Positions 649-19,367 of a DNA stretch of 20,009 nucleotides are shown in pieces. Below the pieces are notes generated by a model. That model was not told the origin of the DNA, searched no databases, and was given only the letters and a program-made list of their open reading frames with translations. Origin of the DNA: Romboutsia sp. (GTDB taxonomy: Bacteria > Bacillota > Clostridia > Peptostreptococcales > Peptostreptococcaceae); NCBI RefSeq assembly GCF_051659545.1, contig NZ_JBOFOR010000158.1, forward strand, positions 1-20,009. Direction: 5' to 3'. The translations under genes were made by a program, and so were the position numbers. Numbering within the stretch: position 1 is the first letter of the stretch; each line of letters opens with the position of its first letter.

Positions 649-1815
649 TTATACTGTTTTGAAGTGTTTTTTATTCTGAGCTATATCTAATCTACTTATC
701 CAATTTAAAATAACAAAACTAAATAAAGAAGCAAATATAGAGAATATAAATATAGATTTAATACCAAGGGTATCTATAAGTCCACCATAAAGTAGCTTCA
801 TTAAAGAATAAGAAATACCAATAGTAAAAGTATAAACCGTCATAGATGTAGTATAAAGTTTTTTATCTACTACCTTAGCTATAAAATCAAATGCACATAT
901 TGTCATTATAGAAACAGCAATACCATGCATAGAAGTAGCTATCATAAATATCCATGGATTAGAAGTAAACAAATAAACAACCCATCTAACAATTAAAGCA
1001 ATACTAGCAAAACTTATTACTTTAACCAGTCCATACTTTTCAAGTAGTGACTTACTCTTAACCATAAAATAAAGTTCAGGAATTACCATAAAGACAGTAA
1101 GTAATCCAACTAAATCACTTCCAGCTCCAAGATTCATTAAATGTATTCCCTGGAATGCCATCATTGCTTCAGTTAAAGAAGTTACGCATACACCACACAT
1201 TAAAATTAATAAGTATGACTTATTTTTAAATAATAATGGTAAATCTTCTTTTAAGTTTATTTTTTCTTCTGTATCTTTACTTGATAAGCTTGGTAAATAT
1301 GGTGTAATAAATAAACAACCTATCATACTAACCATAAATACGTAGAAAAACATTAAATCGTTATTAGTTATTCTAATAAGTTGGCCACATAAAAAAGAAG
1401 ATATTGCAAAGAACATAGAACCTACAACTCTTATTTTACCGTAATTTTCATTTTTTTCTTCACAATATGAAGTTGTTATAGAATCAGTCAATGGAAGAAT
1501 AGAATTTCTAAACATTTCAAGGAATATAGCTATTACAAAAATAGAAATAAAAGAATTAGTAATAGTATAAATCCATGCACATAAAAGCGAAATAAATATA
1601 TTTATCCAAAGTACAGTTTTTTGTTTACTTAATAAATCACTTAAAAGACCCCAAATAGGAACAAAAATAATACCTAAAATTGAAGGTATTGAAACGATAA
1701 CTCCTACTTGTGAAGATGTAAATCCTAGACTATTTTCTAGATATACTGGTAAAAAAGTGTTATATGCACCTAAACCAATAAATAAAGCTAAATATTTAAT
1801 ATAAAATTTTGACAT
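649..1815 (-). CDS. MFS transporter, MFS_1_like type (HcaT / NupG / XapB-like), 388 aa
   Basis: Track ORF 649..1896. I trim to the ATG at 1815, which is preceded by a perfect AGGAGG (rc of 1821-1826) with a 5-nt spacer; the 27-aa extension has no SD. About 12 hydrophobic helices. 'FLPVYLEN.LGFTSSQVG' and 'ILPLTDSIT' resemble the HcaT/nucleoside-H+ symporter pattern as I recall it. Confidence 0.8.
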   Translation of the reverse strand: MSKFYIKYLALFIGLGAYNTFLPVYLENSLGFTSSQVGVIVSIPSILGIIFVPIWGLLSDLLSKQKTVLWINIFISLLCAWIYTITNSFISIFVIAIFLEMFRNSILPLTDSITTSYCEEKNENYGKIRVVGSMFFAISSFLCGQLIRITNNDLMFFYVFMVSMIGCLFITPYLPSLSSKDTEEKINLKEDLPLLFKNKSYLLILMCGVCVTSLTEAMMAFQGIHLMNLGAGSDLVGLLTVFMVIPELYFMVKSKSLLEKYGLVKVISFASIALIVRWVVYLFTSNPWIFMIATSMHGIAVSIMTICAFDFIAKVVDKKLYTTSMTVYTFTIGISYSLMKLLYGGLIDTLGIKSIFIFSIFASLFSFVILNWISRLDIAQNKKHFKTV

Positions 1816-1956
1816 AATAATTCCTCCTATAATAAATATAACATAAAAAAATAAAATTATAAATAAAGTTAAAATATAAAATAAACTTCTATTCACTTTA
1901 ATGAAGTTGGTATATGGATATGTATTAGATATATATCTAAAAAATAGAGTGAAAAA

Positions 1957-2006
1957 TTATTTAAGTTTCACAAAAGGACATATGTCCTTTTAAAAAACTT
2001 AAATAA
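1957..2006. promoter_or_regulatory. 50-bp composite inverted repeat, candidate operator in a divergent control region
   Basis: TTATTTAAGTTT-cac-AAAAGGACATATGTCCTTTT-aaa-AAACTTAAATAA. The perfect 20-bp core palindrome is 1972-1991 and the perfect 12-bp outer arms are 1957-1968 and 1995-2006. It lies between the MFS start (1815, -) and the Crp/Fnr start (2057, +), so a terminator role is implausible. Confidence 0.5.
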
Positions 2007-2034
2007 TTGATAATATATATATAAGTAATATCAT
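2007..2034 (+). promoter_or_regulatory. candidate sigma-A promoter for the Crp/Fnr-yjjI-yjjW unit
   Basis: TTGATA (2007-2012), 16-nt spacer, TATCAT (2029-2034), followed by SD TAGGAG (2041-2046) and ATG 2057. Such matches are common by chance in AT-rich DNA. Confidence 0.3.
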
Positions 2035-2056
2035 ATTTGTTAGGAGCAATCTAACT

Positions 2057-2746
2057 ATGAAAAATAATACACTTTATAACTTAATAGAAATTAAAGAAGT
2101 TCAAGGTTTTGTAAATAAAATACCGGATAGTATTAAGAATAAATGCAAACTATTAAAGTTTGAAAAATCAAAGATAATAACACTTAAAGGAAATACTATA
2201 AAAAATATCTACATAAGCTTGCAAGGGAAAATGCAAGTTAAAAATGAATTTGAGAATGGATTTATATATAATTTTGCAGAAGTAGAATCTATATCATATA
2301 TAGGTGCTATGGAAATTATGGCAAATGAAAATAAATATTCATCAACTTTACAAACAACTACAGAGTGTCTAATGATTGAAATTAAAGTAAATGATTTTAT
2401 AAACTGGATAAACAATGATCAATGCTTAACCTTAGAAGTACTAAAGTTTGTATCTATGAGTATGCATAAACAATCATTAAACAAAGGGGAAGTACTAGCA
2501 TATCCTGCTATATACTCTCTCATAACTTATTTAATAAATGTATATAAAAGTGAAAAAAGTGAAACTATATATCTACAAAAAAGTAGAGAAGAAATAGGGT
2601 CAACGCTAGGATTTTCTGTAAGAACAATTAATAGAAACCTAAAGCTTCTAAAAGAAGAAAAATTAATTTCAGTTAACAGAAAAGTTATATCAATAAGCAA
2701 GGAACAGTTTAATAAACTGTCATATAAATTAAACTCAATAAAATAA
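2057..2746 (+). CDS. Crp/Fnr family transcriptional regulator, 229 aa
   Basis: N-terminal cNMP-binding-like beta-roll region followed by a C-terminal Crp-type HTH ('SREEIGSTLGFSVRTINRNLKLLKEEKLI'). Only 3 scattered Cys, so no FNR-type N-terminal Fe-S cysteine cluster. Confidence 0.85.
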   Translation: MKNNTLYNLIEIKEVQGFVNKIPDSIKNKCKLLKFEKSKIITLKGNTIKNIYISLQGKMQVKNEFENGFIYNFAEVESISYIGAMEIMANENKYSSTLQTTTECLMIEIKVNDFINWINNDQCLTLEVLKFVSMSMHKQSLNKGEVLAYPAIYSLITYLINVYKSEKSETIYLQKSREEIGSTLGFSVRTINRNLKLLKEEKLISVNRKVISISKEQFNKLSYKLNSIK

Positions 2747-2767
2747 ACATATGTAGGGGGAAAAAAT

Positions 2768-4261
2768 ATGCAACAAGTTCTAGACATTATAAAAAATGAA
2801 ACACTAACTTACAACCAACAAGTATTACAACTAGCAGGGCAAGCTGAAAGTACTTTAAATGTACTTGATATAGATGAAGACACTAAAAAACTACTAGATG
2901 AAAATATCATATGTGGTATGTTTGAAGGAAATGCTCCGTATAGGCCAAGATACATAATACCAAATTACGAATTGTTAATGAAAAAAGGATGTAAATTCTT
3001 AGACCTAGATATACCAACGGATATATGGGAAGCTACGAATACATTATTAATATTTTACAAACACGTGCCATCTATAACATCATATCCAGTGTATCTTGGA
3101 AACCTAGATGAACTTTTAGAGCCTTTTGTAAAAGATGAAGAAGAAGCTTATAAAGCTATAAAGTTATTCTTAAAGCATATAGATAGAACTTTAACAGATT
3201 CTTTTGTTCATGCAAATATAGGTCCAGTAGATACTAAAGCAGGTAGATTAGTACTTAAAGCAATGAAAGAATTACAATGTGCAGTACCGAACTTAACAGT
3301 AAAATACGATAAAGACTTAACTTCAAAAGGATTTATAAACATATGTGCAGATACAGCATTAATAACAGCTAAGCCTAGCTTTGCTAATCATAAGATGGAT
3401 ATTAAAGATTTTGGAACTGAAAAGTATGCACTTGCAAGCTGTTACAATGGATTTATAATAGGCGGAGGGGGACATACCTTAGTTAGACTTGTCCTTAGTA
3501 GATTAGCAGAAACTTCAGACTCAGCAGAAGACTTTATAGAAAATAAAATACCTTATGTATCACTTAAAATGTTGGATTATATAGATGAAAGAGTAAGGTT
3601 TTTACTAGAAGAATCTGCATTTTTCAAATCAAACTTCCTTGTATTAGAAGGTTTTATCAAAAAAGAATTGTTTAGTGGAATGTTTGGAATGGTAGGGCTT
3701 GCCGAAGCTGTAAATTATCTTTTAAATGCAACAAATCAAGATGATAGATTTGGATACTCAAAAGAAGCTAATGATTTAGGATTAAGAATAATAGAAAAAA
3801 TTAATTCTATAGTAACTTCGTATAAATCAAAATATACAACTTGTTTTAATAGCCAACATTTAATGCATGCTCAAGTAGGAATAGACACAGATACTGGAAT
3901 ATCACCAGGGTGTAGAATACCAGTAGGTGAAGAACCACAACTATTTAAGCATATATTACAATCTGCGCCATATCATAAATACTTCTTCAATGGGATAGGT
4001 GATATATTTGTATTTGAAGATACCTATAAAAATAATATAGAAGCAGTAGTAAATGTAATAGATGGAGCTTTTAATAGTGGTGTAAGATATATATCAGTAT
4101 ACGGTGATAGCTCTGACGTAGTTCGTGTTACAGGATATTTAGTTAAAAAGTCGGAAGTAGCACAACTTGAAAAAGGAAATGCAGTTAAAAATAATGCAAC
4201 AGTATTTGGAATGAATGCAAAAAATGGTGCTAAAGCCTTTGATAGAAAGCTTAGGGATTAA
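2768..4261 (+). CDS. yjjI: YjjI-family (DUF3029) glycyl-radical enzyme, 497 aa
   Basis: SD GGGGGA then ATG 2768, 21 nt after the regulator. The C-terminal 'SDVVRVTGYLV' matches the glycyl-radical fingerprint RVxG[FWY] (Gly456, nt 4133-4135). Size of about 500 aa and coupling to a YjjW-type activase fit the YjjI family (TIGR04040, from memory). Confidence 0.8.
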   Translation: MQQVLDIIKNETLTYNQQVLQLAGQAESTLNVLDIDEDTKKLLDENIICGMFEGNAPYRPRYIIPNYELLMKKGCKFLDLDIPTDIWEATNTLLIFYKHVPSITSYPVYLGNLDELLEPFVKDEEEAYKAIKLFLKHIDRTLTDSFVHANIGPVDTKAGRLVLKAMKELQCAVPNLTVKYDKDLTSKGFINICADTALITAKPSFANHKMDIKDFGTEKYALASCYNGFIIGGGGHTLVRLVLSRLAETSDSAEDFIENKIPYVSLKMLDYIDERVRFLLEESAFFKSNFLVLEGFIKKELFSGMFGMVGLAEAVNYLLNATNQDDRFGYSKEANDLGLRIIEKINSIVTSYKSKYTTCFNSQHLMHAQVGIDTDTGISPGCRIPVGEEPQLFKHILQSAPYHKYFFNGIGDIFVFEDTYKNNIEAVVNVIDGAFNSGVRYISVYGDSSDVVRVTGYLVKKSEVAQLEKGNAVKNNATVFGMNAKNGAKAFDRKLRD

Positions 4262-4263
4262 AT

Positions 4264-5061
4264 ATGGCAGTGGTTAACAAGATTATTCCTTTTTCATGTA
4301 TAGATGGACCAGGAAATAGAACGGCAATATTTTTCCAAGAATGTAACTTTAAATGTACTTATTGTCACAATCCTGAAACTATAAAAAAGTGTATAAACTG
4401 TACTAAATGTATATCAGTTTGCCCAGTTAAGGCACTAGAAGTGAAAGATGAAAAAGTAGTTTGGAATGAAAAGATTTGTGTACAGTGTGATAATTGTATT
4501 AGAGTTTGTAATAACTTATCAACTCCTAAGACTAAAGAGTTTAGTGTAGATGAACTCTTTAATGAAATAAAGGAAATAAGCCCATTTATCCAAGGTATAA
4601 CGGTAAGTGGAGGAGAATGTACTCTAAATGCTGATTTTTTAATAGGACTATTTAAAAAAGTAAAAGAAGAATTAGATCTTACTTGTTTTGTAGATACTAA
4701 CGGAGGTATAGACTTAACAAATTATGAAGAACTAGTAGATGTAACGGATAAGTTTATGCTAGATGTGAAAAGTATAGATGAAAATGAGCATATTAAAATT
4801 ACAGGAATTAGTAATAATATTGTTTTGAAAAATCTAAAATATCTTTTAGATAAAAATAAGCTATACGAAGTTAGAACTGTTATAGCTCCTAATTTAAAGA
4901 ATGAAAAAACTGTTAAAGAAGTTTCTAATATTATTAAAAATAAGTGTAAGTATAAACTGAATGTATATAGAAAACATGGAGTAAGAAAAGAAGGTATTGA
5001 TTTTCATGGTGAAACAAGTCTTAGTGAAGAAGAAATAAATAAATTTAAAAAATATATATAA
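4264..5061 (+). CDS. yjjW: YjjW-family glycyl-radical enzyme activase (radical SAM), 265 aa
   Basis: Starts 2 nt after the yjjI TAA. 'GPGNRTAIFFQECNFKCTYCHNPE' carries the radical-SAM CX3CX2C (nt 4342-4365). Two ferredoxin-like motifs, CINCTKCISVCP and CVQCDNCIRVC, then 'GITVSGGE', as in GRE activases. Confidence 0.85.
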   Translation: MAVVNKIIPFSCIDGPGNRTAIFFQECNFKCTYCHNPETIKKCINCTKCISVCPVKALEVKDEKVVWNEKICVQCDNCIRVCNNLSTPKTKEFSVDELFNEIKEISPFIQGITVSGGECTLNADFLIGLFKKVKEELDLTCFVDTNGGIDLTNYEELVDVTDKFMLDVKSIDENEHIKITGISNNIVLKNLKYLLDKNKLYEVRTVIAPNLKNEKTVKEVSNIIKNKCKYKLNVYRKHGVRKEGIDFHGETSLSEEEINKFKKYI

Positions 5062-5064
5062 AAT

Positions 5065-5099
5065 AAAGGGTAATTACACAGTGTTAGTAATTACCCTTT
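5065..5099. terminator. bidirectional rho-independent terminator
   Basis: AAAGGGTAATTAC-acagtgtta-GTAATTACCCTTT, a perfect 13-bp stem between the convergent stops at 5061 (+) and 5110 (-). Confidence 0.8.
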
Positions 5100-5109
5100 A
5101 ATAACTTTA

Positions 5110-6072
5110 TTATACAGAACATCCATTTTGTCCAAGATAAGTTGATAAAAAAATTCTTAATTCAACTAAGCATAAAAATAAAATAGCACGATTTTCAAAT
5201 TCATCTCGATTAAGAGGGAGGGGTTGGTTTTTAATGTCTGATGTTAAAAACTCAAGCTCCTTTAGTAATTTACTGACATTGTTAAAATCGAGGGTTGTAT
5301 TAGCCATTTTAAATATAAAATCAGAAATAATATAACCTTGAGAGGGAGTAGAATTTAAAGTATATACATAAGAATATAGAGTTTCTAATATATCCCTTTG
5401 TCTCTTGATGCTTTCAATATGATTTAAAAAAAATCTAGTATCACTTAATAAATTATTATTTATATTTTCATAGGTTTGAGAAACGCTCTTGTCTATTAAA
5501 TTATTCAAATTATGAAGGTCTTTATCGTACTCGGTACCTTCAGTAGGACTTTTGATAAGGTTTGAAATATCTAAAAGTATAACACGAATTTCTTCTTGGA
5601 GCTTTAACTGACCATTGTAAATTTTATCAATATTGCTTGGAATATACATATTCATAATAACGCCCATAGAAGCTCCTATAGTGAATAATAAAGATTCGTT
5701 TATAATCATATCAAAAGATACATTACCTTGAAGCAAGTAATGGGAAGATATAACAAGACACATAGCCATAACGTACTGTATATCTAAAATAAAGCAAAAA
5801 GTTATAATTATAAATGTATATACTGAGAATGAAACTAAATTAAATCCTAATGTATTAAAACATAAATATGAAAATAATGTACATAAAAGAAATCCATATA
5901 CTTTTCCAAGTGCAACTTTAAGTGTTTCTTTTTTTGTATTTTTTACTGTCAAAAGTGTAATTATACCAGCAAACATGGCATATTCTAGATTTAATAACCC
6001 AGCAATAAAAGTAGCTAAAGAACTACCTAGAGCTAATTTTATTATTTTAAGTGCGTTACTTTTGTTTAACAT
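5110..6072 (-). CDS. aromatic acid exporter family (ArAE_1 / FUSC-like) membrane protein, 320 aa
   Basis: N-terminal half has about 5 TM helices ('LKIIKLALGSSLATFIAGLL...AMFAGIITLLTV'); C-terminal half is a soluble helical domain. This architecture and N-terminal pattern are typical of Firmicutes ArAE proteins (from memory). AAGGAGG lies upstream but with a long 15-nt spacer. Confidence 0.6.
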   Translation of the reverse strand: MLNKSNALKIIKLALGSSLATFIAGLLNLEYAMFAGIITLLTVKNTKKETLKVALGKVYGFLLCTLFSYLCFNTLGFNLVSFSVYTFIIITFCFILDIQYVMAMCLVISSHYLLQGNVSFDMIINESLLFTIGASMGVIMNMYIPSNIDKIYNGQLKLQEEIRVILLDISNLIKSPTEGTEYDKDLHNLNNLIDKSVSQTYENINNNLLSDTRFFLNHIESIKRQRDILETLYSYVYTLNSTPSQGYIISDFIFKMANTTLDFNNVSKLLKELEFLTSDIKNQPLPLNRDEFENRAILFLCLVELRIFLSTYLGQNGCSV

Positions 6073-7389: not shown

Positions 7390-8178
7390 ATGAAAGAACA
7401 AAATAATTATAAATACAAGAAAGATGTATTGCGTTTAGCTACATTTATAGGACAACTAATGCTCGCTAACGGAGCAGAGACTTTTAGAGTAGATGATACT
7501 GTAAAAAGGATTTGTAAATCAAGAGGGTTTTCTCATATAAATGTATTTATGGCGCCTAATACAATTATAGTGTCAGATGATAGGTTTGATGGGTATACAT
7601 TTATGAAGGTGATAGAAAATAGGTGTATAAACTTAAATAAAATTGATTTATTAAATGACTTTTCAAGAAAGTTTGTAAGTCAAACAGAGATGTGCATTGA
7701 TGAAGCAATAGAAACATTAATAAAACTAGATGAAGTAAGACATCACTCACAAATAGCAATAAATATATGGACTGCAATAGGCTCTTCAAGTTTTGCTGTA
7801 TTAGTTGGAGGGGATAATGTAATAACATTTATGCTGACTCTAATAACATCTGTAATGGCTATGATTATATTTAATAAAGTTAAAAAAATTAGTAATATAC
7901 CTGTTTTTGCAACTTTAGTATCATCCATGATAATAGGATTTTGCGGAGTAGGGCTTGTAGAATTAGGAATACTAGAAACACCAAAAATGTTAATAGTGGG
8001 GTCTATTATGCCACTTTTGCCGGGAGTACCTTTCTTAAAAGCTATAAGAGATTTAGTATCGGGAGAATTAATGTCAGGAGTTGGACGAGCAATTGATGCG
8101 GGAATTATTGCTACAGGTATAGCCGTAGGTATTGGTATGACTATGAATTTATATGTTAAGTGGGGTGGTTTATTATAA
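7390..8178 (+). CDS. threonine/serine exporter family protein (ThrE / DUF1212, YjjP-like), 262 aa
   Basis: SD AAGGGGGA. 'LRLATFIGQLMLANGAETFRVDDTVKRI' is the hallmark N-terminal ThrE motif. C-terminal half has 5 TM helices. Confidence 0.8.
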   Translation: MKEQNNYKYKKDVLRLATFIGQLMLANGAETFRVDDTVKRICKSRGFSHINVFMAPNTIIVSDDRFDGYTFMKVIENRCINLNKIDLLNDFSRKFVSQTEMCIDEAIETLIKLDEVRHHSQIAINIWTAIGSSSFAVLVGGDNVITFMLTLITSVMAMIIFNKVKKISNIPVFATLVSSMIIGFCGVGLVELGILETPKMLIVGSIMPLLPGVPFLKAIRDLVSGELMSGVGRAIDAGIIATGIAVGIGMTMNLYVKWGGLL

Positions 8179-8654
8179 TGATTTGGATGCCAATTTATAT
8201 ACACATAACATTTTCATATTTAGCAGCAGTTGGATTTGCAGTATTTTTAAATGCGCCCAAGAAAACACTATATGTATCAGGAGCTGTAGGAATGATATCA
8301 TGGACTATATATATATTATTAATGAGATGTAACTTTGATATGATAAGTGCTAATTTTATAGCAGCTTCAATAGCATCATTACTTAGTGAAATATTGGCAA
8401 GAAAGATGAAAAAACCTACTTTATTATTTATAGTACCAGGAATAATAACTTTAATACCAGGACTTGGTTTATATAATACAATGTATTACGTTATCGAGGG
8501 GAATTTTCAACAATCATTTACTACAGGAACTAATGTTATTTTAGCAAGTGGAGCTATAGCTCTTGGAGTTATTGTGGTTTCTTCTTTATTTAGAAATCAT
8601 TATTTAAATTTAAAATCTAAATTAGAAAAGATAGAAAATAAAAAGATTATTTAA
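8178..8654 (+). CDS. threonine/serine exporter ThrE_2 subunit (YjjB-like), 158 aa
   Basis: Track ORF 8160..8654. I prefer ATG 8178, which overlaps the upstream TAA (TAATG) with GGGGTGG SD at 8162-8168. Small protein with 4-5 TM helices, as always paired with ThrE. Confidence 0.75.
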   Translation: MIWMPIYIHITFSYLAAVGFAVFLNAPKKTLYVSGAVGMISWTIYILLMRCNFDMISANFIAASIASLLSEILARKMKKPTLLFIVPGIITLIPGLGLYNTMYYVIEGNFQQSFTTGTNVILASGAIALGVIVVSSLFRNHYLNLKSKLEKIENKKII

Positions 8655-9074: not shown

Positions 9075-10055
9075 ATGCAAGAATTATACGATATAATAAT
9101 AATAGGTGGAGGTCCAGCTGGATTATCAGCAGGAATTTATGCAGGTAGAGCAGCTTTAAAAACATTAATTATAGAAAAAGAATATGTAGGAGGACAAGCA
9201 GTTAAAACATTAGAAATTGCTAACTACCCTGGAATACTAGATATTGATGGACCTAGTTTAGCAAATAATATGAGACAACAAGCTGAAAATTTTGGAGTTG
9301 AATTTGAATATGATGAAATAATATCTATGGATTTGGATAGTAAAATAAAATCAATAAAAACAAGAAAAACTTTACTTAGATCTAAGTCAATAATAATTGC
9401 AACAGGGGCTAAGCCAAGACAAATAGGATTTATAGGTGAAGATGAATTTTATGGAAAAGGTTTGTCCTATTGTGCAACTTGTGATGGAGGTTTTTATAGA
9501 AACTTAGATGTATTTGTGGTTGGAGGAGGGTACTCTGCAGCTGAGGAATCTTTATTTTTAGCAAGGATAGCAAGGAAAGTTACAATACTTGTTAGAAAAT
9601 CAAAGTTTTCTTGTGCTAAATCTATTGTTGATAAAGTATTAGCAAATGATAAGATAGAAGTTAGGTTTAATACTGAAATTACTGAAATTAGTGGAGATTT
9701 ACAACCAACATACTTAGAATATACAAACACCATGACTAATGAAATCGGCAGATATAAACTTTCAAATGACGATAGAGCTTTTGGAATATTTGTATTAGCA
9801 GGCTACATACCAAATACAAATATATTTAAGAATAAAGTTAAACTAGATAAGTATGGATATATACCTACTGATAATAATATGAAAACAAATATAGATGGAG
9901 TATATGCTGTGGGAGACTTAAGAGAAAAATCACTTAGACAAATAGTTACAGCTGTATCTGATGGCGCAATAGCAGCAACTGCTAGTGAAAAATACTTAGA
10001 GGAAAGCAGTCAGATTTTACAAACTTCAGATAAAAAAGTTTTATTATTAGTATAA
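9075..10055 (+). CDS. thioredoxin-disulfide-reductase-like FAD flavoprotein, 326 aa
   Basis: SD AGGAG at 9061-9065. FAD motif 'IIIIGGGPAGLSAG', redox-active CATC (nt 9471-9482), second Rossmann motif 'VVGGGYSAAEE', and 'GVYAVGD'. The NADPH 2'-phosphate motif HRRxxxR reads VRKSKFSCA (nt 9591-9617). Confidence 0.8.
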   Translation: MQELYDIIIIGGGPAGLSAGIYAGRAALKTLIIEKEYVGGQAVKTLEIANYPGILDIDGPSLANNMRQQAENFGVEFEYDEIISMDLDSKIKSIKTRKTLLRSKSIIIATGAKPRQIGFIGEDEFYGKGLSYCATCDGGFYRNLDVFVVGGGYSAAEESLFLARIARKVTILVRKSKFSCAKSIVDKVLANDKIEVRFNTEITEISGDLQPTYLEYTNTMTNEIGRYKLSNDDRAFGIFVLAGYIPNTNIFKNKVKLDKYGYIPTDNNMKTNIDGVYAVGDLREKSLRQIVTAVSDGAIAATASEKYLEESSQILQTSDKKVLLLV

Positions 10056-10301: not shown

Positions 10302-10442
10302 CTATTCCTTTATCTCGTCCTTTTCACTTTTGTATACTTCTTCTAAGTTTTCTTCATCCTTTGAAAGTTTTTCACTAACTTCCTTTGTATACTCCTGCTT
10401 ACACTTTTTACTTAAAGAACAAAATACGCTATCTGTTTTCAT
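10302..10442 (-). CDS. small acidic protein, 46 aa, not in the supplied track
   Basis: GGGGAG SD 6 nt before the ATG (rc of 10440-10442). Encodes MKTDSVFCSLSKKCKQEYTKEVSEKLSKDEENLEEVYKSEKDEIKE, with TAG at 10302-10304. An imperfect hairpin (10270-10292) and the 17-bp hairpin lie downstream. Candidate promoter is TTTACA-N18-TATAAA (rc of 10530-10559). Confidence 0.55.
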   Translation of the reverse strand: MKTDSVFCSLSKKCKQEYTKEVSEKLSKDEENLEEVYKSEKDEIKE

Positions 10443-10670
10443 AAAAATCTCCCCTTATTATATCTATAATTTTAATATATACAGTAGATAGTACTCAGAA
10501 ATAGTTTATAAGTCTTATAACTATAATAATTTATAGTATCCCCCTAGAAAAACTGTAAATGATTACTATATTTAAATAGATACCCACAAAAATAGAGTTT
10601 AATCATAGTAATAAAAAAAATTATAAATAAATCTAATTTCGAAAATATAATACATAAAAATATACAATTG

Positions 10671-10699
10671 TTGAAGCAACTGTGATTATTGACTATAAT
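10671..10699 (+). promoter_or_regulatory. candidate sigma-A promoter of the chemoreceptor gene
   Basis: TTGAAG (10671-10676), exact 17-nt spacer, consensus TATAAT (10694-10699). It lies about 100 nt upstream of ATG 10799. Confidence 0.4.
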
Positions 10700-10798
10700 T
10701 ATCGTATAAAGTGTTTTTTGAAAATTTAAACACTAGTTTTAGAATTTTATAGTAAGAATATAAAAAATAAACACAAATGACTGAGGGGATGAAACTAT

Positions 10799-12823
10799 AT
10801 GATTAGTAAGGTAAAAAAAATATTCCACGGGCTTCAAGTAAGGTTAATAATTATATTAGGGGGGATTTTAGTTGCTATATTTTTAATTTCTGGAATTGTC
10901 ATTGCCAACTACAGTAATGATGCTTTTAGCGAAAATGAAGCGACTATACTACAAAAAACAAATCAAAACACATCTTTACAAATTAAAAACTACATTGACA
11001 CATATTCTACTATGATGAAGCAATTAGCTGTAGACCCTACATTAAAGAAAACTATGCTAGAATTAAAAATAGGGCAAAATGTTAAACAATCTGAGTACTT
11101 TGATGAATCATTAAACTTAATAAAAAATAGTGCTAAACTAGATTCCAAGAATATATTAGCCATATATTATGGAGATGAAGATTCAAAGCAATTACTAGAT
11201 TCTAATGGAGTAATTACATCAGATGATCCAACTTATGATGTAACTTCTAGAGACTGGTATATTGGAGCTAAAGATAACTATTTCTTCATAACTGAGCCAT
11301 ATGAAGATGTGGACTCAGGGGAACAAGTAATATCTATTTCTGTAAGTGTAAAAGATGAAGAGGGCAATTTTTTAGGAGTAGTATCTATAGATATACTTAT
11401 TACTGTAGTTTCAGATATGGTAGCTAACACAACTCTTGGTAATACTGGGTATTATACAATGGTTACAAATGAAGGCATAATATTATCTCATAAAGATAAA
11501 TCTTTATTATTAAAGAATATTAATGATATAGGCCTTGATAAAAATATTTTAACAAATTTAAATAACAATAAAAACGATATTACATATTTCAAATTTAGAA
11601 ATCAAGAAAATGTAGGTTCTATAATAGATATACCAGGAATTAATTGGAAATTAGTAGGATCATTACCAGCAAGTGAATTTAATGCAAATACTACAAATGC
11701 TTTAAATAAAATCATATTAATTTGTATTGTTTCTTTAATAGTAATGTTACTAGCATTAGTTTTAGTAGCTAGAATGATAACTAAACCGATAAGAAAATTA
11801 ATAATAGCAACCAATAAAATGGCTCAAGGTGATTTAGATGTTGAAATTGATGTTAATAGCAATGGTGAAATAGGGACATTATCTAAGAATTTATCTACAT
11901 TAGTAAATAGATTAAAAGAGAATATTCAATATATTAATGAAGTTTCAGGAGCTTTAAAAGATTTATCTAATGGAAATCTATCTATTAAATTAAAGCAACG
12001 CTATGATGGTGAATTTGTAACATTAAAGAATTCATTAATGTCATTATCTGTAACATTTACTAATGTAATGAATGAAATTATAACTATATCTAATGAAGTT
12101 GCTAATGGAGCGAATCAGATAAATGAAGCTTCACAAATATTAGCATTAGGAGTTGAAAATGAAACAATTCTTACAGATAATATTTCAATAACTATAGAAA
12201 AAGTCTCAAAAGATCTTTCTACATTATCATTAGATTCAAGGGAGGTTAACAAATTCTTTACGAAAGTGAATTCAGAAGTAATTAGTTGTAACAACTCAAT
12301 GAATCAAATGCTTGGTTCTATGGAAGAAATACAAGTTACTTCTAGCGAAATTAAAAAAGTAATAAAAGTTATAGAAGATATAGCTTTTCAGACAAATATC
12401 TTAGCTTTAAATGCAGCAGTAGAAGCAGCAAGGGCAGGTGCTTCAGGGAAAGGTTTTGCAGTTGTAGCAGATGAAGTACGAAACCTTGCAGCTAAGAGTT
12501 CAGATGCTGCAAAAACTACTACAGAATTAATTGGAAATTCTATTGAAAAAGTTAACCATGGTAAATCTTTAACTGATACAATAGCTAAATCTTTAAATTC
12601 AATAACTGGGCAAAGTGAAAAAGTAGGTACGCTTATAAATAGTATTTCAACTTCAATATCAAAGGAGGCAACAAGTATTGAGAGTGTAGCTGAAAATATG
12701 CAACAAATTTCAGAGGTAGTTCACAATACATCATCAACAGCACAAGAGATTGCAGCAGCGAGTGAAGAATTTTCTAGCCAAGCAAAAGTACTTACAGAAA
12801 TTACAGGAAAGTTTAATTGCTAA
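10799..12823 (+). CDS. methyl-accepting chemotaxis protein (dCache_1 sensor, HAMP, MA domain), 674 aa
   Basis: SD GAGGGGA. Two TM helices flank a periplasmic region of about 270 aa containing the Cache-type 'SRDWYIGA' motif. HAMP after TM2. Highly conserved signalling hairpin '[40 protein letters not shown]'. Confidence 0.9.
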
Positions 12824-13003: not shown

Positions 13004-13972
13004 ATGATAAAAAAAGCAACATTTGCTGGAGGATGCTTTTGGTGTATGGTTAAGCCATTTGATAAATATAAAGGAGTAGAAAAAGTAGTAGCAGGATATA
13101 CAGGGGGAAATATTGAAAATCCAACTTATGAACAAGTTTGTACTGATACCACAGGACATATAGAGGCAGTACAAATCACATATAATGATGAATTAATAAC
13201 TTATAATAAATTACTAGATATATTTTGGAAGCAAATAGATCCAACTGATGAAGGAGGACAATTTAATGATAGAGGACAGAAGTATAAGACATTTATATTT
13301 TACCATGATGAAAATCAAAAAATAGTAGCCTTAGAATCTAAGAGAATATTGGAAGAAAGTGAATTATTTGATAGCCCAATAAAAACTCAAATAGTAGCAG
13401 CGAAAAAGTTTTATGAAGCAGAAGAGTATCATCAAAATTATTATAAGAAAAACTTGATAAACTATGAAATGTACTTCAGAGGTTCTGGAAGGTATGACTT
13501 TATAAAAGATAATTGGGACAAAAATAACATTAGAAGAGAAGAACTAAAGAATATTTTAACACCAATACAATTTGAAGTTACACAAAATGATATGACTGAA
13601 CCCGCTTTTCAAAATGAGCATTATAATAACAAAGAAGAAGGCATATATGTAGATATAGTAAGCAAAGAAGTACTATTTTCTTCTAAAGATAAATTTGACT
13701 CAGGTTGCGGATGGCCTAGTTTTACAAAATCAGTAGATGAGGATAGTATAGTGGAAAAAAGTGATTTTTCTCAGGGAATGTATAGGATTGAAGTAAGAAG
13801 TAGAGATGCAAATTCTCATTTAGGGCATGTATTTGATGATGGTCCAAAAGAAAGTGGAGGATTAAGATATTGTATAAATTCAGCTTCATTAGAATTTATT
13901 CTTAAAAATGAAATGAAAGATAGAGGATATGAACAATATTTATATATCTTTGAAGATAAAACAACAGAGTAG
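13004..13972 (+). CDS. msrAB: bifunctional peptide-methionine (S)/(R)-S-oxide reductase MsrA/MsrB fusion, 322 aa
   Basis: SD AAAGGAGAG. N-terminal MsrA active site 'GGCFWC' and 'GYTGG'. C-terminal MsrB motifs 'GCGWPSF', '[10 protein letters not shown]' and 'RYCINS'. Confidence 0.9.
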
Positions 13973-14515: not shown

Positions 14516-15037
14516 TTAAAATTTAATGTAAATTAATTCTTTTTCGTTATATCTAGCAATAGCATAAATAAGATCAGAAAGTCTATTAATATACTTTAGT
14601 AAAAGAGGACTTACATTATCAACTTTACTAAGAGTGAAGATTCTTCTCTCAGCTCTTCTACAAATAGTTCTAGCTACATGTAAATTAGCAGATAATAAGC
14701 TAGATCCAGGAACAATAAAAGCATCAACTTTATCAATTTTTTTAATATAGTCATCTATTATAGTTTCAAGATTTTTAATATCATCCTCGGAGACACCATT
14801 TTTATATAAGCCTTCTTTTTTAGTAGCAAGCTCTCCAGAAACTGAAAACAACTTTAATTGAATATTTTTTAATATTTTCTTATCTTCATTTTCTGAATAA
14901 TGTGTGCAAAGACCTATGTATGAATTTAGTTCATCAAGAGTACCGTAAGATTCTACCCTTATATCATCTTTGTCAATTCTTGAGCCATCATATAAAGATG
15001 TTTGACCTTTATCTCCAGTTTTTGTATATATTTTCAA
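14516..15037 (-). CDS. ATP:cob(I)alamin adenosyltransferase, PduO type, 173 aa
   Basis: 'KIYTKTGDKGQTSL' N-terminal ATP-binding motif and 'SYGTLDELNSYIG' are typical of the PduO/MMAB family. The start codon is TTG (rc of 15035-15037), with AAGGGG SD 8 nt upstream. Confidence 0.85.
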   Translation of the reverse strand: MKIYTKTGDKGQTSLYDGSRIDKDDIRVESYGTLDELNSYIGLCTHYSENEDKKILKNIQLKLFSVSGELATKKEGLYKNGVSEDDIKNLETIIDDYIKKIDKVDAFIVPGSSLLSANLHVARTICRRAERRIFTLSKVDNVSPLLLKYINRLSDLIYAIARYNEKELIYIKF

Positions 15038-15556: not shown

Positions 15557-16291
15557 TCATTTACCACAAACTAGTTTTCTTACAAATTCTGTTTTAGGAT
15601 TTTCAATAATTTGATTTGGAGATGCGTATTGATGTATCTGTCCACCGTCCATAACCACCACCTTAGTACCAAGCTTAAGAGCTTCTTTTATATCATGTGT
15701 AATAAAAATTATAGTAACATTAAGTGTTTTGTGAATTTTAATAATGGCTTCTTGTAATAACTTCCTTGTGATTTCATCTACTGCACCAAAGGGTTCATCC
15801 ATTAATAAGATTTCTGGTTTTGCAGCTAAAGCTCTTGCTATTCCAACTCGTTGTCTTTGCCCTCCAGACAATTCACTTGGATATCTATATAACATATCTT
15901 GGCTTAATCCAACAATACTTATAAGTTTATGGATGTTTTTTAATATTTCATCTTTATTTTTAACCTTACTTAGATTTGGAACATAACCAATATTTTTCTC
16001 AATATTCATATTAGGAAAAAGTCCAATCTCTTGAATTACATATCCTATTTTTCTTCTTAACTGTATTTGGTCAACTTTAGAAATATCTTCATCATTAACG
16101 TAAATATTACCACTCTCAGGCTTTAATAGTCCGTTAATTAGCTTGAGAACAGTAGTTTTTCCACAGCCAGAGCTTCCGATTATAGTCAAAAACTCTCCTC
16201 TATTTACAGTTAAATTAAAATTATTTAAGACTATATTATTCTCATAGGATTTAGTAACATTATCAAAAAATATAACTCTATCATGTGACAT
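15557..16291 (-). CDS. ABC transporter ATP-binding protein, osmoprotectant/quaternary-amine (OpuCA/OpuBA-like) type without CBS domains, 244 aa
   Basis: Walker A 'GSSGCGKTT', signature 'LSGGQRQRV', Walker B 'LLMDEPF', H-loop 'ITHD'. The protein ends right after the ABC core, so the tandem-CBS tail of OpuCA is absent. TGA stop. Confidence 0.85.
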   Translation of the reverse strand: MSHDRVIFFDNVTKSYENNIVLNNFNLTVNRGEFLTIIGSSGCGKTTVLKLINGLLKPESGNIYVNDEDISKVDQIQLRRKIGYVIQEIGLFPNMNIEKNIGYVPNLSKVKNKDEILKNIHKLISIVGLSQDMLYRYPSELSGGQRQRVGIARALAAKPEILLMDEPFGAVDEITRKLLQEAIIKIHKTLNVTIIFITHDIKEALKLGTKVVVMDGGQIHQYASPNQIIENPKTEFVRKLVCGK

Positions 16292-16303
16292 AATATGCCT
16301 CCA

Positions 16304-17224
16304 CTATTTTATTAAGCCTTTTTGTTTTAAAAATTCTTTTGCTATTTGATTTTCAGGTTCTTTATTAGTTTCTAATTTGTAGTTTAATTTAGACATTTCA
16401 TCTGAATTAATAATATTATCCATTTTAGCTAATACTTTTTCTAACTCAGGGTGCTTTTTCAATACATCTTCTCTTATTACAGTTCCGCAATAATAAGTTT
16501 GAAAGAATTTTTTATCATCTTGAAGTAAAACAACATCAGATGCAGATAGTTGACCATCAGTAGTAAATACATTCATTACATCAATTTGTTTTGAATTTAT
16601 AGCATCGTATTTAAGGCCAATATCTAAATCAGTTGATTTTTTAAAATTGAAGTTATAAGCTTTACATAAAGAGTCATAGCCATCATCTCTTTCGTAGAAA
16701 TCATATTCTGCACCAAAACAAAGCTCTGATGAATATTTTGATAAATCTGAATATGATTTAATATTATATTTGTCAGCAATATCTTTTCTAATAGCTAGGC
16801 CATAAGCATTATTGAATCCATATAAACCACACCATTTTAAATTATAATTTTCTTCGTATTTTTTACCTAACTCTTTGTATAAAAGATCTTCTTTAGGAAT
16901 ATTTTTTTCTTTAAGAATAAAACTCCAAGCCGTACCTGTATATTCAGGATACATATCAAATTCGCCCTTTAGTAGTGCAGGATGTATATTGCTAGTTCCG
17001 CCACCAACACCTTTAGTAATATCTACTTTTAAGTTAGTGTCTTGTTCAATTAATAATTTTAACATCTCAGCCAATATAAATTGTTCAGACATAGGTTTAG
17101 TTGCAAGTTTTATTGTATCTACATTTTTTTCGTCTTTTTTTGAACATCCCATTGCCGTTATTGAAGTCATAGCAATTATCATAGTTACCGATAAAATTTT
17201 TTTAAAATAGCTTTTACTTTTCAT
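16304..17224 (-). CDS. glycine betaine/choline/carnitine-type (OpuCC/OpuBC family) substrate-binding lipoprotein, 306 aa
   Basis: AGGAGG SD. Signal peptide with lipobox 'TAMGC'. 'GVGGGTSNIHPALLKGEFDMYPEYTGT' is the OpuAC-fold aromatic-box region typical of this family. Confidence 0.8.
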   Translation of the reverse strand: MKSKSYFKKILSVTMIIAMTSITAMGCSKKDEKNVDTIKLATKPMSEQFILAEMLKLLIEQDTNLKVDITKGVGGGTSNIHPALLKGEFDMYPEYTGTAWSFILKEKNIPKEDLLYKELGKKYEENYNLKWCGLYGFNNAYGLAIRKDIADKYNIKSYSDLSKYSSELCFGAEYDFYERDDGYDSLCKAYNFNFKKSTDLDIGLKYDAINSKQIDVMNVFTTDGQLSASDVVLLQDDKKFFQTYYCGTVIREDVLKKHPELEKVLAKMDNIINSDEMSKLNYKLETNKEPENQIAKEFLKQKGLIK

Positions 17225-17242
17225 TAAGCCACCTCCTAATAT

Positions 17243-17884
17243 TTATACCAATCTCCATTTCTTTTTTATAAATTTCTCAATACTTCCAATAATTAAATCC
17301 ACTACAGAAGCTAAAAGTGCAATTAGTAAACTTCCAGCTATAGTCATAGCAGAGTTGTTAGTTGTTATGCCTCTATAGATTGCAACACCAAGCCCTCCAG
17401 CTCCAATAAAAGAAGCAATACCTGCAAGTGCTATAGTCATAACTACCATATTTCTAAGGCCTGACAATATTACAGTTGTTGCTAAAGGAATTTTTACTTT
17501 TAATAGAATCTGAATTTCAGTACTACCCATACCTTTTGCAGCTTCAATAATAAAAGGGTCTATTGTTTCTATACCAGTATATGTACTTCTAACCATTGGT
17601 AATAATCCGTAGATAGTTAAGGCTATTATTGCACTAGTGTTTCCAATACCTGATATAGGTATTAAAAAACCAAGTAGTGCTATAGATGGTATGGTATAGA
17701 TAAAATTTATAATAGACATAACTATTGGAGTTGTTTTTTTATAATAACTAATAATTAACCCTAAAAGTATTCCAAAAACAGAGGCTATAAATATTGAAAT
17801 TCCAGAAATTATTAAATGTTGAATTGTTACTTCCATAAAAAAATCACTTCGCTGTAAGTATAAGTTAATTACTTCATTAAACAT
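17243..17884 (-). CDS. ABC transporter permease (OpuCB/OpuBB-like), 213 aa
   Basis: About five predicted TM helices. An EAA-like loop 'IIEAAKGMGSTEIQILLKVKIPLA' marks a BPD-type permease. It is first in a permease-SBP-ATPase operon. No good SD precedes ATG 17884. Confidence 0.8.
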   Translation of the reverse strand: MFNEVINLYLQRSDFFMEVTIQHLIISGISIFIASVFGILLGLIISYYKKTTPIVMSIINFIYTIPSIALLGFLIPISGIGNTSAIIALTIYGLLPMVRSTYTGIETIDPFIIEAAKGMGSTEIQILLKVKIPLATTVILSGLRNMVVMTIALAGIASFIGAGGLGVAIYRGITTNNSAMTIAGSLLIALLASVVDLIIGSIEKFIKKKWRLV

Positions 17885-17939: not shown

Positions 17940-18200
17940 ACCAATAACATTTAGCCCTAAGAACACCACATTCTTAGATTTAATTCACCTTATATAATAT
18001 TTCTATTATATAAGCCTGCTGGGTTCTAATTAATATTAACTAGTCCATATCAGTTCATCCTATTTAAGATGGCGTGAACTACGCAATGATTATTTTTTTA
18101 TATTCTATATCCCCTCCAAAATATATCTATCAAACCTAAAGTAGCCTTTCTTTATTATTTTATTTAATATTTTTTTAGTTGGTTCTAGATTATCTTTTCT
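17940..18200 (-). ncRNA. probable TnpB-associated omegaRNA (reRNA) scaffold / IS607 right-end region; boundaries approximate
   Basis: In IS200/IS605/IS607 elements the omegaRNA overlaps the tnpB 3' end and runs to the right end (established). Minus-strand hairpins seen: CTTATATAATA-gaaa-TATTATATAAG (17989-18014), CTAAGAA-tgtggtg-TTCTTAG (17957-17977) and AGTTCA..TGAACT (about 18049-18077). Confidence 0.35.
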
Positions 18201-19364
18201 AGCTATATTTATTGCACTATTCACATCTCTAAGTATTGTTGTATTACAAGATACACAAGTAAACGCCCTTATACTTGGGTCTTTCTTTTCTTTATTCCCA
18301 CATATACAACAAGTTTTTGTAGTGTCTTTTTCATTTACAACAACATATGCCTTATTTGACTTTTCCATAGTCCAACTAAGTATTTTTCTAAACATACCTA
18401 TTAAAGATTGATTTAGCATTCCCCTATGCATATTCTTGTCACTTGCTACTTCAAGTGTAGGTGTATAATCACCTATTATTGCTTTATCATAATTTCTAGC
18501 TATATAATTCGCTATACTATACATAATTAACTTAATCTGTTCTCGTCTTTTATGGTATAGCTTATCTAATGTATTATTTAATTTTAGATACCTTTTACTC
18601 TGTAAATAATATTTACTACCATGTTCTGTATATTTCAGCTTATTTTTTCTATTACACAAATCTCTTTTAGATTTAACTTCATCTATTAGCTTATCAAAAT
18701 ATTTGACTTGATATAATTTTTCAAATTCAAAAGTAGTTCCTGTATTATCAATAGCTACGAATAGATTTTTATGATTTGGATCTATTGATATCCATGTTTT
18801 AACTTCCTTATTTGACAGACTTTCTTTTTCTATTGTAAATATGGCATAAAAATCCCCCCCCTGTTGCTTACAAAGTCTAAAGTTTTTTATTTTCTCATTT
18901 TCTCTTAAATCAAACTTTTCTTTTAAATACCCTTTTACATGAACTTGTTTATTAAGTTCATTTTTTCCTAAAGATATTCTTAAATTTCTACTGTCAAGTA
19001 GCTTAAATCATTTATTGGGTTCATCATAAAATAATGAAAACCACTTTTTCTTAAATGACCTGAAATTTGGATAAGAACAATTTTTATTAAAGAATTTTTC
19101 ATAAGAATCCTTAACTCTAATTGCAGTATTTTTAAGTGGTGATGAGTGTACAGAATATAAAAATATATTTTCTGATTTCATTTTAGTAGCATAATTTCTT
19201 AAATTTCGTCCACTCAAAAGCTTTTTCTCACTACCATTTTTATAATCATCTATCGTAACTTGAAGTAGTTGATTGTATAGCCAATTACATATTTTAGATT
19301 GACCATCAAGTATTTGTGAGTCTTTGTTATCAAATACTACTTCTATTTTCTTAGCATATATCAT
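18105..19364 (-). pseudogene. tnpB: IS607-family TnpB (OrfB) RNA-guided nuclease gene, 420 codons interrupted by one in-frame TGA
   Basis: Track ORFs 19008..19364 and 18105..18659 are in the same frame (19364-18659=705). My translation of 18660-19007 is open and TnpB-like ('...GDFYAIFTIEKE...KTWISIDPNHKNLFVAID...'). The only stop is TGA at 19008-19010. C-terminus has the zinc finger CCICG...CVSC and 'RDVNSAINI'. Confidence 0.85.
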
Positions 19365-19367
19365 AAC

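Follow-up and report, generated by a model that had tools for sequence, protein, structure and literature searches.

A YjjI/YjjW glycyl radical enzyme pair in a predicted, autoregulated Crp/Fnr-family operon of Romboutsia

The stretch of DNA analysed here, called the window below, comprises 20,009 nucleotides (nt) of contig NZ_JBOFOR010000158.1 from Romboutsia sp., is AT-rich (G+C 25–31%) and encodes on its plus strand the three closely spaced genes that are the subject of this study. A gene for a Crp/Fnr-family regulator (crp, nt 2057–2746, 229 amino acids) is followed by yjjI, which encodes a glycyl radical enzyme (GRE) of the YjjI family (2768–4261, 497 amino acids), and by yjjW, which encodes a radical S-adenosylmethionine activase (4264–5061, 265 amino acids). 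An original prediction, made from the letters of the window, had joined these genes to a divergent major facilitator superfamily (MFS) permease gene in a single cassette, and the list of open reading frames (ORFs) of the window matches all four genes as they were described. The reported spacings are also correct, with 2 nt between the stop of yjjI and the start of yjjW and 21 nt between crp and yjjI. The longer spacer contains the putative ribosome-binding site of yjjI (GGGGG, 2756–2760, plus strand) and, since it offers no visible room for a terminator, we infer that crp and yjjI are co-transcribed.

By its sequence, the 497-residue protein is a YjjI-family GRE. In hidden Markov model (HMM) searches it scores 737.5 bits against TIGR04040 (cut-off 498.3), with residues 2–496 covered, and 711 bits against PF11230, formerly DUF3029 (cut-off 23), and a database protein of Romboutsia sp. 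that matches it with 100% identity carries the annotation 'YjjI family glycine radical enzyme'. The predicted glycyl radical site, Gly456 (GGA codon, 4133–4135, plus strand), lies in the RVTGY motif at residues 453–457, exactly as first noted. Conservation was assessed in one alignment of 21 close homologues, 57–87% identical to the window YjjI, and in a family-wide set consisting of 50%-identity representatives of the whole family (485 matches, about 20 of them full length) together with E. coli YjjI; that so few of the 485 representatives are full length suggests a compact, probably isofunctional family. Gly456 is kept as glycine in 20/20 full-length family representatives, E. coli included.

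The predicted thiyl-radical residue is Cys225 (codon 3440–3442, plus strand), in the loop S-C-Y-N-G. It aligns with the radical cysteine C419 of PflB both in the HMM comparison with PDB sequences and in an hhalign comparison with E. coli PflB (E = 2.6e-5), in which YjjI residues 174–232 are aligned to PflB 370–427 and '...YALASCYNG' pairs with '...YAIACCVSP'. Since S224-C225 pairs with C418-C419, Cys225 would be the counterpart of the hydrogen-abstracting thiyl cysteine, whereas the second cysteine specific to pyruvate formate-lyase (PFL) is absent. The loop ASCYNGFIIGGGGH, proposed earlier as the candidate thiyl-cysteine loop, is thus supported by alignment and conservation, although it lies at nt 3434–3475 (residues 223–236) and not at 3438–3479. 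The possibility that YjjI is itself a PFL was rejected: it has S224-C225 in place of C418-C419, and its match to PF02901 (19.8 bits) falls below the cut-off of 24.3.

Among the 21 close homologues C49, C225, C382 and G456 are all invariant. Across the family representatives C225 is retained in 21/21, C49 is cysteine in just 13/21 and C382 in just 1/21. His148 and Glu294 are invariant across the family, and E53, R61, K202, N207, N227, R240, H367, Q369, D375, R383 and R453 are nearly so. Cys382 itself (codon 3911–3913, motif SPGCRIPVGEEP) adjoins the near-invariant Arg383, and the rest of the family has A, V, T, S or H at this position (Ala in E. coli), making it a lineage-specific cysteine.

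An AlphaFold2 model of YjjI built from the alignment has a mean predicted local distance difference test score (pLDDT) of 88.2 and a predicted template modelling (TM) score (pTM) of 0.89. In GREs the radical cysteine and glycine occupy the tips of two hairpin finger loops, and the model displays this arrangement, with both residues at β-hairpin tips: Cys225 between strands 220–222 and 228–230, and Gly456 between strands 451–454 and 457–460. In a Foldseek search of the PDB the top matches are class III ribonucleotide reductases (RNRs), namely NrdD of P. copri, phage T4 and S. thermophilus (E = 1e-17 to 1e-15; query TM-score, TMq, 0.67–0.76; target TM-score, TMt, up to 0.68), followed by PFL, PflD, YbiW and dehydratases with lower target coverage (E = 1e-14 to 1e-10). 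The fold match of the model to NrdD and PFL has a probability of 1.00 (TMq 0.6–0.76), and as modelled YjjI is a GRE barrel of about NrdD-core size. The earlier description of YjjI as far smaller than characterised GREs, taken to be 750–850 residues long, therefore needs qualification; its closest structural relatives are the class III RNRs of about 540–700 residues, not the PFL-type enzymes.

This resemblance raises the question of whether YjjI could be a divergent, minimal RNR or a back-up for NrdD. Besides the best structural matches (E 1e-17, TMq 0.70–0.76), a weak hit to the NRDD family PF13597 (32 bits, cut-off 26.2) and the nucleoside-related genes that neighbour yjjI in several lineages (see below) are compatible with such a role. 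The NrdD equivalog models, however, score only 17–28 bits against cut-offs of 326–764 (TIGR02487, 23.3 versus 326; NF005497, 28.5 versus 764), and the sequence alignment with E. coli NrdD produced by hhalign spans only about 45 residues. The C-terminal Zn-ribbon cysteines are absent, as the last cysteine of YjjI is residue 382, and the protein is 100–200 residues shorter than NrdD, so that an ATP-cone or specificity-site region is lacking. E. coli, moreover, has a bona fide nrdDG besides yjjIW, and C49, the candidate second cysteine, is found in just 13 of the 21 family representatives. A role of C49 as the 'bottom' cysteine of NrdD was considered; the 45-residue alignment gave no mapping for it, and its patchy occurrence weakened the case. 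We give the RNR hypothesis scarcely any credence.

Nearly as improbable in our estimate is a non-enzymatic function for YjjI as a radical carrier, spare part or sensor, comparable to GrcA/YfiD. Its unusually small size for a GRE, the lack of conserved metabolic partner genes beside yjjI in the surveyed loci and the lack of any YjjI reaction in the searchable literature would fit such a function. Yet the model retains the full barrel with both finger loops, the invariant thiyl cysteine is accompanied by a conserved polar and charged set (H148, E294, R61, K202, R240, H367, Q369, D375 and R383) typical of a substrate pocket, and YjjI has its own dedicated activase.

That activase, YjjW, matches TIGR04041 with 361.8 bits (cut-off 250.2) and PF04055 with 53 bits; together with the TIGR04040 and PF11230 results, all far above their cut-offs, this bears out the proposed YjjI/YjjW identity. 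Reading of the sequence also substantiates the motifs reported for the 265-residue protein, a radical S-adenosylmethionine CX3CX2C motif (CNFKCTYC, residues 27–34, nt 4342–4365) and two ferredoxin-type CX2CX2CX3C motifs, CINCTKCISVC (residues 43–53, nt 4390–4422) and CVQCDNCIRVC (residues 72–82, nt 4477–4509). The best HMM matches outside its own family are the activase of hydroxyproline dehydratase (HypD), at 153 bits, and the generic PFLE_PFLC model, at 137 bits. A two-ferredoxin insert is typical of the activases of eliminase and decarboxylase GREs.

The original statement that no substrate or reaction had been assigned to this pair still holds: no biochemical assignment of YjjI/YjjW was found in the searchable literature to August 2026, subscription-only papers being outside its scope, and a GRE review of June 2026 makes no mention of YjjI. 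The RefSeq name of the E. coli protein is 'DUF3029 domain-containing protein', and a preprint of 13 August 2026 that calls YjjI 'an uncharacterized putative GRE' reports that E. coli Gly465, the equivalent of Gly456, is labelled by a radical-trapping probe in live cells (bioRxiv 10.64898/2026.08.13.742689). The system in the window is thus an ordinary member of a catalogued, function-less GRE/activase family and not a new kind of enzyme. What the present analysis adds is a redefinition of the unit as crp-yjjI-yjjW with an operator, an inventory of the active site and a lead towards nucleosides.

The extent of the unit was judged from a survey of one genome per species, comprising 80 loci (these and further retrieved loci are cited below by L numbers) with YjjI homologues 53–87% identical, from Peptostreptococcaceae, Clostridium, Lachnospiraceae, Fusobacteriaceae, Spirochaetota, Victivallales and others; the window proteins were compared by BLASTP with all ORFs of these loci. 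A YjjW homologue lies immediately downstream of yjjI in 79/80 loci, the exception being a contig end, and its gene often overlaps yjjI by 8 nt. A homologue of the regulator is encoded immediately upstream of yjjI in 12/80: seven loci of Romboutsia/Terrisporobacter type, L009, three of Lachnospiraceae type (L015–17) and the spirochaete locus L018. About half of the loci consist of yjjI-yjjW alone. When contexts were retrieved from the regulator side, the order crp-yjjI-yjjW was found in 4/4 with differing flanks, for example AraC, GH2 and a GPH-type MFS_2 protein in R. ilealis, or UxaC and a TRAP transporter in L087. Neither de novo clustering of neighbours nor a Pfam census revealed any conserved partner other than YjjW and, in some lineages, the regulator; the census of 145 immediate flanking proteins yielded 198 families, the commonest counts being GNAT 8, HATPase 5, ABC 4 and NUDIX 4.

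Small ORFs upstream of yjjI in loci that lack crp were considered as divergent Crp/Fnr proteins and rejected on reading their sequences. By eye they resemble a sigma factor, hemolysin-III-like, ECF-S-like membrane, LrgB-like, DUF-type and nuclease-like proteins, and the sigma-factor label alone is backed by an HMM (three members match Sigma70_r2). As a separate observation, genes for patatin-like phospholipases recur near yjjW, as E. coli yjjU, in Clostridium sp. K13 and in three Cetobacterium loci (L065:11924–12886; L020, L026 and L028, about 10350–12650; L081:5412–6485), a recurrence that may be coincidental.

The regulator itself is, on the basis of its domain matches, a member of the Crp/Fnr family with a sensor barrel resembling cyclic nucleotide monophosphate (cNMP)-binding domains and an HTH_Crp_2 DNA-binding domain: PF00027 matches with 32.5 bits (cut-off 27.5), PF13545 with 31.9 (27) and PF00325 with 22.2 (21). 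Its subfamily is narrow, with 196 clusters at E ≤ 1e-10. As had been pointed out before, an FNR-type N-terminal cysteine cluster was not found; the protein has three scattered cysteines only (C30, C104 and C123), of which C104 alone is conserved among 14 orthologues, and the protein reaches 21.8 bits against the FNR model NF008365 (cut-off 228). Without an Fe-S cysteine cluster, it is unlikely to sense O2 directly as FNR does. The predicted recognition helix reads S-V-R-T-I-N-R, with S187, T190 and R193 invariant in the orthologue alignment (S-x-R-T-x-N-R), and is unlike the helices of both FNR and CRP.

Upstream of crp, at 1972–1991, lies a perfect 20-bp palindrome, AAAAGGACATATGTCCTTTT, which we propose as the operator of this regulator; its core, GGACATATGTCC, occupies 1976–1987 and its centre is at 1981.5. 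The core pattern GGACANNTGTCC matches at this one place in the 20-kb window, with 0.09 matches expected by chance. In each of the 12 fetched loci where the regulator gene directly precedes yjjI, the palindrome recurs 37–73 nt ahead of the annotated start codon of that gene, with the consensus AAArGGACATATGTCCTTTT across loci. In eight of these 12 the core is exact, in L018 it has one mismatch, and in L015–17 it takes the form of a symmetric variant, (C/T)GACA-N2-TGTCG. The palindrome also precedes a crp-like gene in L025 whose product is just 20% identical to the window regulator, and in L006 it stands directly upstream of yjjI with no adjacent regulator gene. Elsewhere in the 1.18 Mb of loci, with one mismatch allowed, a handful of intragenic matches were the only others. 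L025 (1762–10323, from the Firmicutes metagenome-assembled genome (MAG) UBA3546) is of interest in its own right: palindrome and crp-like gene appear to head a nine-gene string on one strand that includes crp, two ATP-binding cassette (ABC) permeases, an ATPase, a solute-binding protein, a 443-residue amidohydrolase, yjjI and yjjW, with a second amidohydrolase gene convergent to it. In no other locus does the operator seem to govern a transporter as well as yjjI.

The position of the palindrome relative to the promoter is nearly constant. In the window a predicted extended −10 element, TGATAATAT, lies at 2008–2016 on the plus strand, with the hexamer TAATAT at 2011–2016 and a predicted start near 2023, and in 14/15 loci a TAnnnT hexamer (TAAAAT or TAATAT), mostly TG-extended, ends 33.5–35.5 nt downstream of the palindrome centre. 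If transcription is taken to start 7 nt past the hexamer, the palindrome centre falls at −40.5 to −42.5 across loci and at about −41.5 in the window. Class II CRP- and FNR-dependent promoters have their site centred at about −41.5, overlapping the −35 region. An FNR site reads TTGAT-N4-ATCAA, with the core TGAT-N4-ATCA, and in the same frame the palindrome reads (A/G)GGAC-N4-GTCC(T/C), with the same 5-N4-5 symmetry. Because a palindrome about 41 bp upstream of the predicted start has the geometry of a class II activator site, positive autoregulation of a crp-yjjI-yjjW operon through ligand-dependent class II activation appears to be the arrangement that these data describe. Control by a Crp/Fnr-family protein has a precedent in E. 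coli, where yjjI is directly activated by FNR (PMC3688515) and co-clusters with nitrate-respiration genes (PMC3228777); anaerobic induction of yjjI is also reported for Yersinia (PMC3792023). A search for the FNR consensus in the region before E. coli yjjI gave only matches with three mismatches, the allowed limit.

Alternatively, the palindrome might serve a different regulator, or form an RNA or DNA hairpin that goes with the gene upstream. In another phylum, in mycobacteria, the motif GGACANNTGTCC is known as the target of an unrelated regulator of the TetR type (PMC3526308), which means that the motif by itself is insufficient to identify the protein that binds it, and in L006 the site is present without an adjacent crp gene. 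Against this, the site accompanies the regulator gene in the window and in every one of the 12 fetched loci, it tracks even the distant L025 homologue, and, L006 excepted, loci without the regulator do not have it. The genes upstream change between loci, whereas the distance between site and −10 element is fixed, and both the 5-N4-5 frame and the −41.5 position suit Crp/Fnr dimers, as is established for class II promoters. An origin of the palindrome outside the Crp/Fnr regulator is, in our view, unlikely.

The MFS gene lies upstream of crp on the minus strand. Its longest ORF, with a GTG start, spans 649–1896 (415 amino acids), but the start is most likely, from the sequence, the ATG at nt 1815, which is preceded by AGGAGG 8 nt upstream and gives a protein of 388 amino acids (649–1815). 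Exact-sequence look-ups with either start found no record. The permease had been called HcaT/NupG-like; the first half of this label is sustained by BLASTP (22% identity to E. coli HcaT, E = 6e-18) and the second is not (NupG, E = 0.035). It matches PF12832 with 158 bits and falls below all equivalog cut-offs (NF008346, 107 versus 259; TIGR00902, 67 versus 699; TIGR00889, 41 versus 446), and these scores make it a generic MFS_1_like transporter, with HcaT as its nearest relative. The hint of an aromatic-acid or nucleoside substrate that had been drawn from the permease is accordingly lost, the protein being far below the HcaT cut-off and without meaningful similarity to NupG. On its left, at 621–642, a G+C-rich hairpin of 8–9 bp with T-runs on both strands stands between the MFS gene and a convergent 191-residue ORF (37–612); it is a candidate bidirectional terminator and would mark the left boundary of the MFS transcription unit.

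The four-gene cassette of the original prediction, in which the permease imports, the regulator senses and YjjI/YjjW transform an aromatic-acid or nucleoside substrate, can be weighed with these data in hand. MFS and crp share a divergent intergenic region of 241 nt that holds the palindrome, the permease is weakly similar to HcaT, and transporter genes of other families adjoin crp-yjjI-yjjW in R. ilealis and L087. However, a relative of the permease occurs in 0/80 yjjI loci, six other Romboutsia-type loci among them, and each close relative has other genes upstream (a tRNA gene, one for an HD phosphohydrolase, GH2 with MFS_2, or UxaC with TRAP). The palindrome, furthermore, is about 150 nt from the best candidate MFS promoter, and the permease falls far short of the HcaT and nucleoside-permease cut-offs. 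A homologue of the 191-residue ORF is likewise absent from all 80 loci, and one of the putative exporter of the ArAE family encoded downstream of yjjW (5110–6072, minus strand, 320 amino acids; PF06081 and PF11728) is present in a single locus (L007). What survives of the cassette is its YjjW component and, with the same palindrome each time, its regulator; the permease, absent from all surveyed loci and replaced by different flanks in every context retrieved from the regulator side, is to all appearances a chance neighbour. On this evidence both the MFS and the ArAE genes are unrelated neighbours outside the conserved unit, and the cassette is quite improbable.

The opposite end of the proposed operon is marked by a hairpin at 5064–5100, between the convergent yjjW and ArAE genes, which the original prediction had described as a 13-bp terminator closing the unit. 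The hairpin is real (a stem of 13–14 bp, −18.5 kcal/mol, z = −4.24, with 0/200 shuffles folding equally well), although it emerged from folding and was not reported by a consensus terminator scan. Its U-tract is weak on the plus strand and a better T-run is found on the minus strand, which suggests a bidirectional element, a candidate terminator shared by yjjW and the ArAE gene.

Taken together, these observations lead us to a reading to which we assign a probability of roughly 70%: the window would contain an autoregulated crp-yjjI-yjjW operon (about 1972–5100) encoding a thiyl-radical enzyme, YjjI, activated by YjjW, with the MFS and ArAE genes lying outside. A dimer of the Crp/Fnr paralogue would bind the palindrome, which overlaps the −35 position of a promoter that has an extended −10 element alone, and in the presence of a small-molecule ligand would switch on its own gene together with yjjI-yjjW. 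YjjW, as its family membership suggests, would reductively cleave S-adenosylmethionine at the [4Fe-4S] cluster held by its CX3CX2C motif, its two ferredoxin-like auxiliary clusters feeding in electrons, and the resulting 5'-deoxyadenosyl radical would take a hydrogen from the C-alpha of Gly456. By homology with other GREs, the glycyl radical would then be relayed to Cys225 on the opposing finger loop, and the thiyl radical would abstract a hydrogen atom from a small cytoplasmic substrate inside the NrdD-like barrel. The chemistry is most likely a single-thiyl reaction of the elimination, lyase or decarboxylase type on an anionic metabolite, because YjjI has no Cys-Cys pair and no family-wide second cysteine but does have the invariant His148 and Glu294 and the near-invariant Arg61, Lys202, Arg240 and Arg383. 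Acyl transfer as in PFL is disfavoured by the missing Cys-Cys pair, and ribonucleotide reduction by the missing reductant cysteine, zinc ribbon and allosteric sites.

Several considerations weigh against this reading. The transcription start, the binding of the regulator, co-transcription and radical formation are all deduced from the sequence, and the reaction class is argued from the presence and absence of residues. No more than about 15% of the sampled loci have the regulator gene before yjjI, which marks it as a lineage-specific addition, and the core of its proposed operator serves, as mentioned, a TetR-type protein in mycobacteria.

A nucleoside- or pentose-related substrate is suggested by gene context, and we hold it as a tentative lead, at somewhat less than even odds. 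The genes yjjI-yjjW and deoCABD are divergently arranged in E. coli and Edwardsiella. Genes for NupC-type nucleoside transporters adjoin yjjI-yjjW in L089 (4748–9712) and L090 (4681–8398), the one in L090 preceding the pair by 70 nt in the same orientation; in Edwardsiella such a gene abuts yjjW. In a Lachnospiraceae MAG (L079, 901–11699) yjjI-yjjW is placed between a gene for a PnrA/Bmp-type nucleoside-binding lipoprotein and a same-strand string encoding an ABC ATPase, two permeases, cytidine deaminase (cdd), adenosine deaminase (add) and phosphopentomutase (deoB); the last member of this string, truncated where the fetched stretch ends, is a partial gene with a cNMP-binding domain. A Bmp (PnrA-type) gene also follows yjjW in L069 (514–3259). 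Seven Clostridium loci (L022, L037, L044, L045, L047, L054 and L061) have, 1–5 kb from yjjI on either side, a psuK-psuG-like pair, that is, a kinase of the HTH-PfkB type and a pseudouridine-5'-phosphate glycosidase, labels that come from reading the sequences and from the similarity of the pairs to one another rather than from HMMs. Finally, L015–17 contain a NUDIX gene and a gene homologous to that of YjjG, the pyrimidine 5'-nucleotidase of E. coli, and in L001 a gene for a YfbR-like 5'-deoxynucleotidase (an HD phosphohydrolase) adjoins crp. The lead derives its force from the agreement of independent gene contexts in unrelated lineages with the NrdD-like fold. The lead is nevertheless modest: in the unbiased Pfam census none of the 198 families is dominant, and the counts are uncorrected for phylogeny. 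A 574-residue database entry of E. coli type that joins PF11230 (YjjI) to PF01791 (DeoC), P0394, should be noted in this connection only as a probable gene-calling or assembly artefact, because yjjI and deoC are divergent neighbours.

A more specific version of the lead would make YjjI a single-cysteine radical enzyme derived from NrdD that acts in the anaerobic catabolism of nucleosides or pentoses, possibly by the first half of the RNR reaction. The enzyme might remove the 3'-hydrogen of a ribosyl compound, which would then lose its 2'-OH; this would amount to a radical dehydration or lyase step with the reductive half absent. The Crp/Fnr paralogue, with its lack of an FNR-type cysteine cluster, would then be the sensor of that ribosyl metabolite. 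We regard both the enzyme role and the proposed step as speculative and rather unlikely, if conceivable.

The remainder of the window appears to be ordinary. The genes at 7390–8654, 9075–10055, 13004–13972, 14516–15037 and 15557–17884 look like housekeeping genes of the chromosome, encoding a pair of ThrE-type exporter proteins, a flavoprotein resembling thioredoxin reductase, an MsrA-MsrB fusion, a cobalamin adenosyltransferase and a glycine-betaine ABC system of the OpuA type, and no link to yjjI was seen for any gene of this set between 7390 and 17884. An IS607-like element occupies the 3' end of the window (18105–20009, minus strand). Its TnpA, a serine recombinase with a MerR-type helix-turn-helix domain, runs off the window end (19368–20009) and is followed by an apparently split TnpB, consisting of a 118-residue N-terminal ORF (19008–19364, no Pfam match) and a 184-residue ORF with a Cas12f1-like TNB domain (18105–18659).

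YjjI/YjjW is among the last GRE families of E. coli and of many gut anaerobes to be without a known reaction. To our knowledge, every earlier de-orphaning of a GRE (CutC, HypD, IslA and indoleacetate decarboxylase) has yielded new, gut-relevant anaerobic chemistry. For this family the active-site inventory (Cys225, His148, Glu294, the Arg/Lys ring and no second cysteine) narrows the plausible reaction classes, and a misleading clue, the neighbouring permease, has been removed. The convergent though modest signal of gene context towards nucleoside metabolism defines a small and cheap panel of substrates. The regulator and its sharply defined candidate operator could moreover serve as a biosensor in the search for the inducer, probably the substrate itself or a closely related compound.

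Of the known systems, E. coli YjjI/YjjW (b4380/b4379) is the closest. The proteins belong to the same families (TIGR04040, TIGR04041 and PF11230), function-less in both organisms; the bicistronic yjjI-yjjW order with coupled or overlapping genes, the SCYN cysteine loop and the RVTGY motif are shared, and in both cases a Crp/Fnr-family activator is involved, FNR in E. coli and, by prediction, a dedicated paralogue in the window. The window YjjI, on the other hand, is 39% identical to its E. coli counterpart, 19 residues shorter, and has Cys382 where E. coli has Ala. Global control by FNR would be replaced by a dedicated paralogue without the FNR cysteine cluster and by a predicted GGAC-N4-GTCC operator, and the deoCABD neighbours of E. 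coli give way to unrelated genes.

With the group of PflB, CutC, HypD, glycerol dehydratase, YbiW and PflD, YjjI shares an alignable Cys-loop region and the common barrel fold, and YjjW is nearest to the activases of this group. YjjI differs from it in being 250–350 residues shorter and in having an S-C rather than a C-C pair, within S-C-Y-N rather than the G-C-V-E of eliminases, and from PFL itself in its sub-threshold PF02901 score. NrdD is the best structural match, with a similar core size, a finger loop bearing a single thiyl cysteine and a glycine hairpin near the C terminus, whereas YjjI lacks the Zn-ribbon, the allosteric sites and a family-wide second cysteine and remains far below the NrdD HMM cut-offs; YjjW likewise differs from the small NrdG in its two auxiliary ferredoxin-type clusters. 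The proposed regulatory arrangement, finally, resembles the class II promoters of FNR and CRP in its two-domain regulator and in a 5-N4-5 palindrome that replaces the −35 element about 41.5 bp from the predicted start. It departs from them in its half-site, GGAC in place of TGAT or GTGA, and in its recognition helix, S-V-R-T-I-N-R in place of the T-V-E-T-I-S-R of FNR.

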